Assembly: GCA_900322215.1 (NCBI GenBank)
Contig: ONYW01000005.1
Location: 1-63,222 of the forward strand
Direction of reading: 5' to 3'
Origin: an uncultured Eubacteriales bacterium
GTDB lineage: Bacteria; Bacillota; Clostridia; Christensenellales; CAG-917
Length of the DNA stretch: 63,222 nt
Below are positions 27,060 to 63,222 of this stretch, one piece after another. The position numbers were made by a program, and so were the translations under genes. Under the pieces are notes generated by a model. That model was given only the letters and a program-made list of their open reading frames with translations, had not been told where the DNA came from and did no database searches. How positions within the stretch are numbered: the stretch's first letter is position 1; each line of letters opens with the position of its first letter.

Positions 27060-27174
27060 AAATATATACTCCTAAATTTATTTTCTACAACCATAATAGC
27101 AAATGAAATATAACTAATTTATGACAAATTGCTGTATTTTACACACTTTTATTCTATGACAAAACCATTCTAAA

Positions 27175-27660
27175 GGGGCAAAGCCCCTCACCAAGCACAA
27201 GAATGTTGCGGACACTTCGTGTCTTTAATTATTGAGAATTACTCAAATAAGTTTTTCATCAATAAACATCTATCAAACGGGACGAAGTCCCCACCAAGCA
27301 CAAGATTGTTGCAGACACTTCGTGCCTGTATTGGGAAATATTAAATCGCTACTACATTATCAAAAGGGACGAAGTCCCCACCAAGCGCATTTCATGTGTT
27401 TGTTCTTGCAAAACCTCGTTTGAATTATTATTATTTTCGGACCCCCGTGTAGTAGCGAAGAGATGTGTGCTTGCACACAAATAATCTCGAAGCGTCCACT
27501 TCGGACACTCCGTGTCTTTAATTATTGAGAATTATTCAAATATGTTTTTCATCAATAAACATCTATCAAACGGGACGAAGTCCCCACCAAGCACAAGATT
27601 GTTGCAAAATACCGGCATGACAACAAATCTCTCTTGCGGTTTAGCAAACAATCTTGCGCG
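27175..27660. repeat. Cluster of REP-like palindromic repeats with a ~105-bp near-exact duplication
   Basis: gggacgaagtccccaccaagc at 27279, 27366 and 27572 (variant at 27175); 27209-27313 is nearly identical to 27502-27606. Confidence 0.85.
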
Positions 27661-27703
27661 CGGTAGCACGAAAAAAGCGCACCAAATTGGTACGCTTTCC
27701 CTG

Positions 27704-27905
27704 TGGCGCCTGTTGAGGGCGCGACGCGTTAAGCGGACAGTCCTGTGAACTGTCCGTAGCTAAAGCGAACGAGGTGGATGCCTTTGGCAACATCGAAGTC
27801 GGACTCGGACCCCCGTGTAGTAGCGTCAGCGTCCACTTCGGAAGAAGTGTCGCACACATAGTGTGGCGGCGTTTTACACCGCAGGGGTGAGTTCCTCAAC
27901 AGGCA
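27704..27905 (-). pseudogene. Interrupted 3' fragment of tRNA-Asn (old attachment-site scar or tRNA-derived element)
   Basis: tggcgcctgttgaggg (27704-27719) and ggactcggacccccg (27801-27815) match tRNA 44009-44037 but are split by ~80 bp; cctcaacaggc near 27894-27904 is an inverted copy. Confidence 0.75.
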
Positions 27906-28028
27906 ATGTTTTTTATCAAAAACATAATAAAAAACGAAAACCTTAATCTTGCGACTAAGGTTTTCTGTGGCTAACCCTTCCATTTTAGCTAACACTTTGC
28001 CCGTAATTATTTTCCCAAAATCAATATT

Positions 28029-44008: not shown

Positions 44009-44084
44009 TGGCGCCTGTTGAGGGACTCGGACCCCCGACACTTCGGTTAACAGCCGAATGCTCTACCGACTGAGCTAAACAGGC
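44009..44084 (-). tRNA. tRNA-Asn (GTT)
   Basis: Cloverleaf GCCTGTT/AACAGGC acceptor, D-arm GCTC/GAGC, anticodon arm TTCGG-CTGTTAA-CCGAA, T-loop TCCGAGT, encoded CCA. Confidence 0.95.
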
Positions 44085-52378: not shown

Positions 52379-53503
52379 ATGAAAATCTTGTCGCTTACCC
52401 TTTCAAACTTCCGCAATTACGCCCACGCGTCTGTGAATTTCACAGACGGTCTCAACGTACTCTACGGCGAAAACGCGAGCGGCAAGACGAATATGCTCGA
52501 GAGCGTATACTTCGCGTCCGTCTTCTCTTCCCCCCGCACGACGAAGGACAAAGAGATGGTTATGCTCGGAGCGGAGTTCGCGACTTTGAAGCTCGTCATA
52601 GAGAAGAAATACCGAAAGCATACGATAAACATATTGATAGATTCCGCAGGCAAAAAAAAGGTCGCCGTGGACGGCGTGCCCGTAAATCGCGCGGCGGAAC
52701 TGCTTGGTATACTCGGCGTCGTCTTCTTCTCCCCCGATGAGATGAAACTCGTCAAGGAATCCCCCGCCGAGAGAAGACGCTTTTTAGACATCGGGCTCAG
52801 CCAACAACAAAAGGCGTATTTTACGGATCTTAGTCGCTACAACCACACGTTAAAGCAAAAGAACAACCTGCTCAAAGAGTATAAGCACTCGACGAATGTT
52901 GACGATATGCTCGACGTATGGGACGCAGGACTTGCAAAAGAGGGCGCGACGATCATCGCCCGCCGTATGGAATATATCGACACGCTCAACGACGCCGCAA
53001 GGAAGTTTCACTTCATCTTATCAGGCGAGAAAGAGACGCTGACTTTGTCGTACGAGAGCGGAGCAAAGACGGACTGCCCGCAGGAGGAACTTGAACAAAA
53101 CCTCCTCACCGCCCTCCGCGCCGCGCGTGAAAAGGACAAGGAACTCGGCTTTTCCACGGTCGGTCCGCACCGCGACGATATAAAGATAGAAATCAACGGC
53201 AAGGATTCTCGCCGTTTTGCTTCGCAAGGTCAACAGCGCACGATTGCGCTTGCCATGAAAATAGGACAGGTCGTCATCTACCGCGACGAGATAGGCGAAT
53301 CCCCCGTGCTTCTCCTCGACGACGTTCTCTCCGAACTCGATGAGAACCGTCAGCACGTCCTGCTCGATCTTGTCAACGGCTTTCAAACTCTCCTCACCTG
53401 CACGGAGTATAAACTTGACAATCCCGCAACTTTGTTTTGCGTTTCAAACGGAAACATAAACAAAAATAAACAGCTCTCAAAGGGTGCCGTTGTGCAACCC
53501 TAA
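52379..53503 (+). CDS. recF: DNA replication/repair protein RecF
   Basis: NFRNY, GENASGKTN, PAERRRFLD, VGPHRDD, ASQGQQRT and LLLDDVLSELD motifs. Confidence 0.97.
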   Translation: MKILSLTLSNFRNYAHASVNFTDGLNVLYGENASGKTNMLESVYFASVFSSPRTTKDKEMVMLGAEFATLKLVIEKKYRKHTINILIDSAGKKKVAVDGVPVNRAAELLGILGVVFFSPDEMKLVKESPAERRRFLDIGLSQQQKAYFTDLSRYNHTLKQKNNLLKEYKHSTNVDDMLDVWDAGLAKEGATIIARRMEYIDTLNDAARKFHFILSGEKETLTLSYESGAKTDCPQEELEQNLLTALRAAREKDKELGFSTVGPHRDDIKIEINGKDSRRFASQGQQRTIALAMKIGQVVIYRDEIGESPVLLLDDVLSELDENRQHVLLDLVNGFQTLLTCTEYKLDNPATLFCVSNGNINKNKQLSKGAVVQP

Positions 53504-53960
53504 ATAAAGTTTTCCCATCTCCTTCGTATGGTTCTTCCCACCGCGCCTAAACCGAACACAAGTCAAAATGCTTAGTTTATGGAAAACGATATGGTCGCAT
53601 TTTGACCTTGCTATTCTCTACAAGGCTTTATACCCGCTCCGGGAAGCACCGTCGGTGCCCTCGCTCAAAAGCTGTGTCAATTTATATTGCCTTTGCAAGC
53701 AAACGCAATAATGATAGTCACACCTTTTTCGCCACTTCGCACACAATGTTGTTTGCTAAACGGAACAAGAGATTGCTTGCTCAATCCAGTATTTCGCAAC
53801 AACCTTGTGTTTGATAATAACCACACGAAGTGTGTGCCACGCCTCTTTGGGCGAAATAGAACGGAGCCTCGCCGTCGAGGCGTACAAAGTATCAGTCGGG
53901 ACACACTCACGCGGTCGTCGCCACTGCGACTCCAATTCCGTCTTCGAACAGCTGGCGCAA
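53499..53960 (-). ncRNA. Candidate large structured non-coding RNA/element, copy A (unidentified family)
   Basis: Collinear conserved blocks shared with 62903-63222; compensatory changes in stems. Confidence 0.6.
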
Positions 53961-54065
53961 GAGAATCATTTCACAAATCCACACTTAAACAATCAAAAAC
54001 AGCACGATAAAGTGCCGTTTTTGCAAATAATTATAAAAACCGTTAACATCAAAAAACAAACATAA

Positions 54066-54187
54066 TAAACCGCTCGGTTCGGATGAAGAGCGCGAAAAAG
54101 CCCGCTTGCGAGAGATGAGCGTACCGACGTACGTGACCCTCGAACAAACGGGCTTTGACAATGCTATTCGCCAAACTGTGCGGTTTA
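54066..54187. repeat. ERIC-like palindromic element, copy 3
   Basis: TIR taaaccgc.cggtt.gg / ccaaactgtgcggttta; core gagcgtac..gtacgtgacc; overlaps the parB TAA stop. Confidence 0.75.
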
Positions 54188-55084
54188 TAATTTATCGTTG
54201 TATTTCAGGATTTGAATCAGCGCATGAATACGCTCAAGATCGTCCGCATTGAAATAGTCTATAGTGATTCTTCCCTTTTGGTCGTTGCCGACGAGTTTGA
54301 CCTTTGTTGCAAAGATACGCTTCATATCGCCGACAAACTCTTTGAGTTCAAGCGACATAACTTTGTTCTCTCTCGGACCTGTCGGAATAGTCTTTCTCGT
54401 GAAGTAGAGGCGAACTCTGTTTTCGAGATCTCTGACGGAGAGTTTGTTGTCGCAGGCTTGCTTTGCAAGGGCGATGAGGTATTCTTTGTCGTCGATGGAG
54501 ATGAGCGTTCTTGCGTGGCCCGGGGCGAGTTTGCCTTCTCTCACGAGTTCGGTCACTTCGTCGGGGAGTTGCAAAAGTCTAAGAGTGTTTGTGACGTACG
54601 GGCGGGATTTGCCGATTCTTATCGCCACTTCCTCTTGAGTGAGACCGTGGTTTTCCATAAGTTCGCGCATACCTTCCGCCGCCTCGACAGCGTTCAAGTC
54701 TTCGCGGTGCAAGTTCTCTATAAGCGAGATTTCTTGGATTTGTTGCGGAGAGAATTCTCTTACGATCGCGGGGACTTTTTTGAGTCCCGCCATGTGGCAT
54801 GCGCGGAAACGGCGTTCGCCTGCGATGATGAGATATCTTCCGCCCTCGCTACGCACAAGAATGAGAGGTTGAAGGACGCCGTACGTCGTGATAGACGCCG
54901 CCATTTCTCTCAAACTGTCCTCGTTGAACGTCTTTCTCGGTTGGTTCGGGTTCCTGTCAATGAGAGTGATGTCGATTTCCTGCGTTTGGATGTCGTCGGA
55001 AAGATCCACTTTGACGTTTTCAGGATTATCGTTGAAGAGTGCGTTCAAGCCTTTCATGCCAAGGCCGCCTTTTGCGTTTGCCAT
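54185..55084 (-). CDS. parB: Chromosome partitioning protein ParB/Spo0J
   Basis: GGLG.KGLNALF, NPNQPRKTF, GVLQP, IIAGERRFRA, IENL.REDLN.VE.A and HTH GKSRPYVTNTLRLL. Confidence 0.96.
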   Translation of the reverse strand: MANAKGGLGMKGLNALFNDNPENVKVDLSDDIQTQEIDITLIDRNPNQPRKTFNEDSLREMAASITTYGVLQPLILVRSEGGRYLIIAGERRFRACHMAGLKKVPAIVREFSPQQIQEISLIENLHREDLNAVEAAEGMRELMENHGLTQEEVAIRIGKSRPYVTNTLRLLQLPDEVTELVREGKLAPGHARTLISIDDKEYLIALAKQACDNKLSVRDLENRVRLYFTRKTIPTGPRENKVMSLELKEFVGDMKRIFATKVKLVGNDQKGRITIDYFNADDLERIHALIQILKYNDKL

Positions 55085-55095
55085 AACAAAACTCC

Positions 55096-55860
55096 TTAGA
55101 TTTTTTGTATAAATTCTTTTGCGAGCGCCTCGTATGCGAGTGCTCCCGCGCATTTTTTGTCGTATAGTACCACCGGCTTGCCAAAACTCGGCGACTCCGC
55201 CAGGCGTACGTTCTTCGGGATCGTGGTCTCAAACACCTTGTCGCCAAAGAGTTTTTCGATCTCCGCCCTCACTTCCCTCGTGAGTTTGCTCCTGCCGTCG
55301 TACATGGTGAGCGCAACGCCCGCGATATTGACGGACGGATTCAAAAACTTCCGTACGAGTTTCACGGTGTTCATCATCTGCGCCAGTCCTTCGAGCGCGA
55401 AGTATTCACACACGATAGGCACGACGATGCCGTTTGACGCGGTGAGTGCGTTGACGGTGAGCAGCCCGAGCGACGGACCGCAGTCTATAAAGATATAGTC
55501 AAAATTGTCCTTTACCGCCTCGAGTTTCTCTTCGAGCACGCGCTCGCGCCCGATGACGATTTGCCCGAGTTCGAGTTCCGCCCCCGCAAGGTCGTTGGAC
55601 GCGGGTAGGATTTTCAATCCCTTTATCTCGGTATCCACGATGCAAGACTTTATGTCAGCGCCGCCGCAAATAACGTCGTATATAGAGTTTTTGGTGCGTT
55701 TGTCAAATATGCCGAGCGATGAAGAGGCGTTTCCCTGCGCGTCGAAGTCCACAACAAGGACTCTTTTGCCCGCTTCCGCTATATATGCCGCAAGATTGAC
55801 GCAGGTCGTCGTCTTGCCAACCCCGCCTTTCTGATTTGAAAATGCAATAATTTTTGCCAT
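55096..55860 (-). CDS. parA: ParA/Soj ATPase
   Basis: NQKGGVGKTTT deviant Walker A, IDCGPSLGLLT, CEYFALEGL and IPKNVRLAESPSFGKP motifs. Confidence 0.96.
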   Translation of the reverse strand: MAKIIAFSNQKGGVGKTTTCVNLAAYIAEAGKRVLVVDFDAQGNASSSLGIFDKRTKNSIYDVICGGADIKSCIVDTEIKGLKILPASNDLAGAELELGQIVIGRERVLEEKLEAVKDNFDYIFIDCGPSLGLLTVNALTASNGIVVPIVCEYFALEGLAQMMNTVKLVRKFLNPSVNIAGVALTMYDGRSKLTREVRAEIEKLFGDKVFETTIPKNVRLAESPSFGKPVVLYDKKCAGALAYEALAKEFIQKI

Positions 55861-62902: not shown

Positions 62903-63222
62903 CCTAAATAAAGTTTTCCCATCTCTTTCGTATGGGCTGACGTCGTTTAACCCTAAATGCAATACCCCTTCCTGCTCCGCCAGGTTTCCCGCACCGCGGA
63001 ACAAACCGAACACAAGTTGCTCACTTCTAAGGAAATAAACAAAACTATCGTTCGCAACCTTGCTATTCCCTACAAGAGTGTACTACTCGCTCCGGGGACA
63101 CCAAGTCGGCGCTCTAAAATCAAGTTTCCTCTATTCTTTGCCACTTCGCCTTTGGGACGCTTCGCAACAGAATGTCCCAAAGTCTCGTACTGAGTGCAGA
63201 CCGAGGCACTCCGGGGACTCCG
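62903..63222 (-). ncRNA. Candidate large structured non-coding RNA/element, copy B (truncated by the window end)
   Basis: Shares the ordered blocks ctaaataaagttttcccatctc.ttcgtatgg, caccgcg, aaaccgaacacaagt, accttgctattc.ctacaag, cgctccggg, gccacttcgc, cgtac and gactcc with copy A. Confidence 0.6.

Follow-up and report, generated by a model that had tools for sequence, protein, structure and literature searches.

Two tracts of the DNA analysed here are members of a previously undescribed, intricately folded interspersed repeat that occurs dozens of times per genome in one rumen and gut family of Clostridia. The window, i.e. the whole stretch of 63,222 nucleotides (nt) under analysis, is an entire contig (C34) of an uncultured Eubacteriales bacterium, whose genome (G000) comprises 1.59 Mb in 65 contigs and is estimated to be 94% complete. 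Copy A lies at 53474-53948 and copy B at 62950-63222, both on the minus strand. An earlier note on the window had drawn attention to the two tracts as a large structured RNA-like element, and the present analysis followed it up. We regard the chances as evenly balanced that the repeat is a lineage-specific, interspersed and modular structured repeat of the BOX/ERIC kind.

In the streamlined genomes of the rumen and gut Christensenellales (1.3-1.9 Mb), about 1% of the DNA consists of this one elaborate folded repeat, without the usual mobilising enzymes. If the repeat is merely parasitic, it shows that a propagation mechanism not yet discovered is able to maintain complex folds. Should it be functional, it would rank among the most highly reiterated structured RNAs of any bacterium. 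The family fragments assemblies, modifies the ends of genes and would confuse the search for non-coding RNAs (ncRNAs) in these lineages. A covariance model of its 5' domain (R1, 128 positions) is a starting point for its annotation.

Copy number and modular build

The earlier note counted two divergent copies, whereas each genome holds dozens. In G000, blastn with copy A returned 91 matches, nhmmer gave 54 when seeded with type A and 61 when seeded with type B, and a profile of the 5' domain found 63, of which 38 were near full length. Because 25 of these 63, copy B at 63222 among them, lay within 400 nt of a contig end, the repeat breaks the assembly of G000 and accounts for much of its fragmentation. 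About 17 copies in this genome belonged to type A, with a mutual identity of 92-96%, and type B formed a second group about 70% identical to type A. The halves of copy A were 92-96% identical to the other type A copies of the genome.

The canonical unit was about 270-330 nt long and was organized as a conserved 5' domain, then one of several interchangeable central domains, and then one or more tail units. The 5' domain (about 125 nt) was found in every unit and consisted of UUCGAAGACGG, hairpin H1 with tandem G.A, a GAGYGYC block, AGUACG, the long hairpin H3, whose internal loop is conserved, and GUGGCAUAAUGAG. Copies A and B shared the central domain CCCGGAGCG / GUAGAGAAUAGCAAGG...ACUUGUGUUCGG. 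A second, shorter central domain occurred in the 'short' copies of G000 and in most relatives, and at least one further type in G051, a relative with a closed genome of 1,647,214 bp. The 3' end was formed by AUUUAGGG, a hairpin, and UUGUAGAG or UUGAGAG, often with further partial tail units behind it; the tail hairpin followed by UUGUAGAG/UUGAGAG recurred in other genomes. In the leader before the 5' end, a UUCGRRG-like motif occurred a second time, at a distance of 25 nt upstream in two copies counted by hand.

In copy A, a type A unit with an insert (53474-53948, 100% self-match), the 5' domain occupied 53835-53948 of the minus strand and comprised UUCGAAGACGG, H1, a GAGUGUG block, CAGUACG, H3 and GUGGCA. 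This part is common to all family members, its H1 and H3 covary, and it is the part modelled as R1. It was followed at 53671-53834 by a 164-nt insert in place of the canonical UAAUGAG..CGAUAC linker of 17 nt. The insert was not seen in other type A copies, and parts of it recurred elsewhere, e.g. at 27588-27662 of the window with 78% identity. The length of about 450 nt proposed in the earlier note is therefore specific to copy A. The central and 3' domain (53498-53670) contained the GCACC/GGUGC hairpin, CCCGGAGCG, the long helix GUAGAGAAUAGCAAGG...ACUUGUGUUCGG with covarying upper pairs, GCGGUGGG, the CCAU/AUGG hairpin and AUUUAGGG, and the tail hairpin (AGGGU..ACCCU) with UUGAGAG closed the unit at 53474-53501. 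A recF-like open reading frame (ORF) on the opposite strand (52379-53503) terminates within this tail, such that its last ten or so codons (..QLSKGAVVQP) are derived from element sequence, a case of gene-end remodelling. The C-terminus of this ORF is unlike that of the orthologue in another element-bearing genome, G005.

Copy B (62950-63222) is a type B unit that lost about 38 nt of its start at the contig end, and the type B seed matches it at model positions 48-367. The terminal block CCAUACGAARGAGAUGGGAAAACUUUAUUUAGG, which had been described as common to both copies, is indeed present in both tracts, but near copy B it belongs to an appended type-A tail unit (62903-62936, minus strand). 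This extra unit follows the tail of copy B itself, is 97% identical to the tail of copy A, and is located 70 nt upstream of a flavodoxin-like ATG (62832).

The units were modular in several ways. Besides the alternative central domains and the repeated tail units, H3 modules were swapped between types, one copy (contig C39) had an internal deletion, and there were nested or tandem partial copies. An 81-nt module (CGCGACGCGUUAAGC...CGAAGUC) with hairpins of its own was present 19 times in G000, e.g. at 27720-27800 (plus strand) of the window. All seven copies of this module in G051 were inside host elements, in the sense orientation and at three different loop positions. An Rfam search at E<=10 with one copy carrying the module gave no match to it or to the element around it. 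Within the window, the module and the segment resembling the insert of copy A (27588-27662) were both contained in an ORF-free composite at 27060-28028, with the direct repeat GGACCCCCGUGUAGUAGCG at 27440 and 27808 as bounds. The composite has the appearance of a second assembly of structured repeats that draws on the same modules.

Further sequences were noted behind the tails. In G000 (e.g. C28:4650-4960, minus strand, and C44:38290-38440, plus strand), GAGAGCAACCAC was followed after 60-100 nt by ..CCACAC-loop-GUGUGGUUGCUC. The last ten bases of the GUGUGGUUGCUC block can pair with the GAGAGCAACCAC block, and this pairing may form a helix that closes the segment, or else an alternative structure resembling a terminator. 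A downstream GAGAGCAACC module was considered as an independent repeat and rejected, as it was seen only directly behind element tails (about 15 instances, by eye); it therefore offers no empty paralogous sites.

Fold, distribution and genomic context

Read on the minus strand, the two tracts show the ordered conserved blocks that the earlier note had described, with compensating stems between them. The pairings GUCAAAAUGC/GCAUUUUGAC versus GUUGC/GCAAC, GCACC/GGUGC versus GCGCC/GGUGU and GAGUGU.. versus GAGUGC/GCACUC are present in copies A and B, with more compensated variants in further genomic copies. The conserved junctions, the covarying stems of variable length and the optional domains bear out the view that this is not a simple DNA repeat. 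A proposed CUUGUA-GRGAA-UAGCAAG hairpin competes with the long helix GAAUAGCAAGG/ACUUGUGUUC, and its near-invariant positions favour neither of the two.

Covariation was measured in an alignment of 38 diverse 5' domains from 26 genomes and metagenome contigs, in which the pairs of H1 and H3 were counted. In these two helices 77.1% of the cells were paired, and both partners had changed in 17 of the 19 pairs (123 cells). Covariation scored 0.421, compared to 0.131 in shuffles (none of 500 reached the observed value) and at most 0.111 with slid partners. For the 3' part, RNAalifold on 41 copies found compensation in 10 of 34 pairs, including a long-range CCC/GGG pair (CG in 25, UA in 13). The upper helix pairs of the type found in copy A changed likewise, with CG in 31 versus UA in 8, AU in 27 versus GC in 8 and CG in 5, and AU in 28 versus CG in 13.

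Among the mismatches at helix positions, opposed purines (67 cells: AG 34, GA 18, AA 11, GG 4) were far more frequent than opposed pyrimidines (19 cells: CC 10, UC 8, UU 1). In H1, two adjacent positions were without a standard pair in 32 of the 38 sequences; by eye, these were G.A/A.G in the 32 and standard pairs in the other 6. The surplus of opposed purines and the tandem G.A/A.G indicate the minus strand, the one read in the earlier note, as the folding strand. Two other lines of evidence on the fold were rejected. The sense strand folded better in 40/40 and 29/29 copies, but shuffled controls gave the same offset, which means that this advantage is mostly one of base composition. A long-range helix between the leader and AGUACG, predicted in one main-type copy, was without compensation in the other copies inspected by eye.

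Constraint on the repeat was uneven. Of 296 columns compared over 11 type A copies, 236 were invariant and 21 had a pairwise diversity of at least 0.4, with the top 10% of columns carrying 69% of the diversity. Random decay would have left the variation among these copies far less clustered.

At E<=1e-4, R1 matched 67 of the 108 genomes of the same GTDB family. By genus, the matches were in 40/51 genomes of g1, 12/15 of g29, 12/12 of g30, 1/2 of g18 and 1/1 of g24, with no match in 11 other genera of the family. At least 20 genomes had at least 32 scored matches each. Among 151 genomes across the order, R1 hit only the family of the window (G000 and three of five other members), and the 146 genomes that represented other families gave no match. 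A strict pattern of the type A/B central domain proved unsuitable as a family probe, as it found only 4 stretches in 2 other metagenome-assembled genomes among 185,579 species genomes, and 19 metagenome stretches in two samples. This central domain is thus a local variant, and the search was therefore moved to the 5' domain. In viral contigs, the 5'-domain pattern gave 54 matches, which is about the chance number by rough arithmetic, and none was confirmed by R1 at E<=0.01. No match to the element was obtained by blastn in phage and plasmid collections.

The earlier note had found no match by eye to several known RNA families, and a search with Rfam 15 gave none either. At gathering thresholds, the whole window gave only one transfer RNA gene (44012-44084, minus strand, 67.8 bits). 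The element remained unmatched with thresholds as loose as E<=10 for copies A and B and E<=5 for eight main-type loci. In the literature, supplements aside, we found no description of this repeat family.

The genomic context was analysed in G051, where all 52 loci were between predicted genes. Convergent genes flanked 20 of them, tandem genes 25 (14 co-oriented, 11 anti-oriented) and divergent genes 7, compared to 282 convergent, 946 tandem and 282 divergent spacers in the genome (chi-square p=0.0012). The element is enriched between convergent genes, in either orientation. With a crude ORF call in G000, 18 loci had a co-oriented upstream neighbour and 12 had one of opposite orientation; in 10 the neighbour fell beyond a contig end.

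Nature of the repeat

We prefer to place the repeat among the BOX/ERIC kind. Within a genome, its copies would multiply and become homogenised as DNA, through a trans-acting factor or through host recombination, and selection would preserve the fold of one strand. In G051, 34 of the 52 loci lie behind a co-oriented gene, and a copy in such a place would probably be co-transcribed and add a large structured domain to the 3' end of the transcript. Comparison of two genomes illustrates the dynamics of the copies. In G005, a type A-like copy (82-93% identical to copies in G000) was found upstream of a gene that we take, from its N-terminal motif, to be tsaD-like. At that place G000 has only a spacer of about 100 nt, and the flanking genes are 79-84% identical between the two genomes. 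At another locus, both genomes have a copy at the same place and in the same orientation, with 74% identity in the copy and 76% in the flanking gene. Therefore, copies have been gained and lost, and some are perhaps old.

Pneumococcal BOX elements are built of modules in the order boxA-boxB(n)-boxC. Like them, the present repeat forms dozens of interspersed intergenic copies (BOX elements number up to over a hundred), is modular with variable internal or terminal units, has an extensive fold and a narrow lineage, remodels gene ends, is proposed here to be co-transcribed, and has no known dedicated transposase. Unlike them, it is larger (270-330 versus roughly 100-250 nt), its 5' domain folds into several helices with conserved unpaired junctions instead of one long stem, and it includes several alternative central domains and a nested optional 81-nt module. 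There is no sequence similarity between the two, and the host clade is different. The present repeat is more elaborate than any other of the BOX/ERIC kind known to us. ERIC/IRU and Correia/NEMIS-type MITEs (miniature inverted-repeat transposable elements) are of a similar size class (about 100-300 nt), are intergenic, have internal indel variants and act at the RNA level when co-transcribed; they carry terminal inverted repeats (and the MITEs target-site duplications), whereas the ends of our element are not inverted copies. BOX, RUP and SPRITE repeats are described by Croucher et al. (2011, PMC3049150) as structured, mostly parasitic, slowly transposing and co-transcribed.

Several observations weigh against this placement. 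Near-invariance beside saturated columns fits selection on each resident copy and favours a host function over a purely parasitic one. Neither terminal inverted repeats nor a target-site duplication nor an exact empty site could be made out, the orthologous spacers being too diverged. The element ends, UUCGAAGACGG at the 5' side and AUUUAGGG-hairpin-UUGUAGAG at the 3' side, do not mirror each other. At two orthologous loci, namely the recF spacer and the one upstream of the tsaD-like gene, occupied and empty spacers could not be aligned closely enough to give the insertion boundaries base by base. A mobilising enzyme was not found in G000 and five other element-rich genomes searched, one of them a single contig. 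Co-transcription cannot be general, because 18 of the 52 loci in G051 have no co-oriented gene before them. In H1 and H3, the G.U oppositions (16) are matched in number by A.C (15), and this count is uninformative. The folding energy is weak (z = -1.78 for the sense and -1.70 for the antisense strand versus shuffles). Because the energies are only 1.7-1.8 standard deviations below those of shuffles, the support for the structure is comparative, not thermodynamic.

Alternatively, and with a probability that we consider rather low but not small, the copies could be a multigene family of stand-alone structured ncRNAs, such as a scaffold of an abundant ribonucleoprotein (RNP) or a protein sponge, with their own promoters and selected for a host function. 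The conserved unpaired junction motifs, the invariant columns among paralogues beside saturated ones, the persistence over at least three genera and an orientation independent of the neighbouring genes would agree with this. So would the optional domains inserted at loops in the same orientation, as for the 81-nt module in G051, and the terminator-like hairpins that a simple scan for a hairpin with a T run found just upstream of 11 and just downstream of 13 of 41 copies in G051. However, no conserved sigma-70-type promoter (-35/-10 pair) was evident by eye in the leader, and a TATAAA-like motif there in genus g1 was not kept in g30 or G000. About fifty copies per 1.6 Mb, interchangeable central domains and truncated units would also be unusual for a functional RNA.

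Metatranscriptomes were consulted on the same question. Contigs covering the element were found in three bovine gut runs of one study and one sheep gut run of another. The summed word depth on the element was 50-286 in the two best runs (X1 and X2) and fell to near zero in most unique flanks; in two runs, the neighbouring gene had a depth of 25-48. These contigs carry no strand or end information, and uncovered flanks prove nothing. The high cover would agree with an ncRNA family, but it cannot tell RNA from contaminating DNA of a repeat with 40-60 genomic copies, and it therefore indicates presence in RNA libraries, not a defined transcript. Transcription of the element is suggested, not proven. 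Of the earlier idea of a mobile or multicopy ncRNA or ribozyme, the multicopy part stands; nothing suggests a ribozyme or an intron, and a discrete RNA is unproven, with no promoter evident by eye and a mixed orientation towards neighbouring genes.

It is unlikely, in our opinion, that the repeat is a new class of large structured RNA with about 50 gene copies per 1.6 Mb genome, in which exchangeable modules are punctuated by UUCGAAG/UUGUAGAG and the 81-nt module is nested in the sense orientation only. Such a class would be either an abundant lineage-specific RNP scaffold or a mobile RNA or single-stranded element, spreading without a known transposase or reverse transcriptase (RT). HEARO/omega RNA, GOLLD, ROOL, OLE and raiA resemble the element in their length of several hundred nt, multiple helices, conserved junctions and optional domains. 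In contrast to these, the element has no Rfam 15 match, a far higher copy number, and no linked nuclease or prophage context.

Movement as folded single-stranded DNA, as in attC, IS200/IS605 or REP/RAYT, with the covariation reflecting a DNA fold, seems quite improbable to us. In its support, the stem structure is more conserved than the sequence, favourable mismatches are on one strand only, and partial copies are nested or in tandem. The foldable strand was the leading strand of replication in 34 of the 52 loci in G051 (p=0.036), but this weak bias was mainly due to gene-co-oriented copies (14/14), compared to 13/20 between convergent genes. A far stronger bias has been reported for IS200/IS605. 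The Y1 (HUH) transposase or RAYT (Y1_Tnp, PF01797) was absent in all six element-rich genomes, with control genomes scoring as expected, and a multi-helix fold of 300 nt with conserved junctions goes well beyond the known single-stranded recombination sites. The attC site of integrons consists of one imperfect hairpin (60-140 nt) and forms arrays of uniform orientation beside intI, and the size and multi-helix fold of the element argue against a relation to it. The REP/BIME and REPIN-RAYT systems of proteobacteria, reportedly treated by Nunvar in 2010 and by Bertels and Rainey in 2011, are similar in that they are high-copy, intergenic, mostly at gene 3' ends, mosaic with other repeats and persistent in a lineage. 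However, REPs are palindromes of 20-40 nt that need a Y1 (RAYT) transposase, and the fold here is far more complex.

We consider it very improbable, and already largely refuted, that the element is the RNA of a mobile system, i.e. a guide RNA such as the omega RNA of TnpB/IscB or the bridge RNA of IS110, the ncRNA of a retron or defence RT, or an ORF-less group I or II intron. Its size and structural complexity are similar to those of such RNAs, and it is likewise multicopy and patchily distributed, but the proteins do not accompany it. RVT_1 was absent in G000 and four of the five other genomes and over the cut-off in the fifth, so it does not co-occur with the element. The TnpB zinc ribbon (PF07282) gave nothing over the cut-off in any of the six genomes, where IscB-specific domains were not searched, and IS110 (PF01548) was absent in the five element-rich genomes searched, which did not include G000. 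The neighbouring proteins comprised no recurrent family, the largest cluster having 11 of 340 flanking ORFs, and the Rfam models of introns, HEARO and retrons were unmatched. As all loci in G051 lie between predicted genes, there is nothing for an intron to be spliced out of. The earlier note had proposed to look for copies with an RT or nuclease ORF in a loop, but the 46 full-length copies contained no ORF in a consistent reading frame.

A small protein gene on the opposite strand has a negligible probability and was rejected: the longest open frame is antisense in 43 of the 46 copies (68-123 aa), which follows from the G+A-rich sense strand, but near-identical copies are open in different frames that give unrelated peptides, the other three copies have only sense frames of 49 aa, and the length-variable stems shift the frame between types.

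Other features near the copies

Between copy A and the gene upstream of it there is a terminator-like hairpin with a T run (53995-54022, minus strand), which we assigned to that gene; it is kept in the orthologous spacer of G005, a spacer without the element. A separate hairpin repeat of about 120 nt, not part of the element, lies at 54067-54186 (minus strand), adjoins the stop of the ORF at 54185-55153, and has 91% matches in G011 and G005. This repeat is often directly upstream of element copies (also at L002:1150-1290 and many other loci), and in G005 one sits on the recF stop.

Short tandem units of AGGAAU/GAGGAAU flank several copies (L002:1280-1310 and upstream of several copies in G000), with an inverted copy downstream in contig C22. 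In other genomes, different hairpin repeats are found at the position of these units, e.g. GGGUGGGACACCCACACCC in G051.

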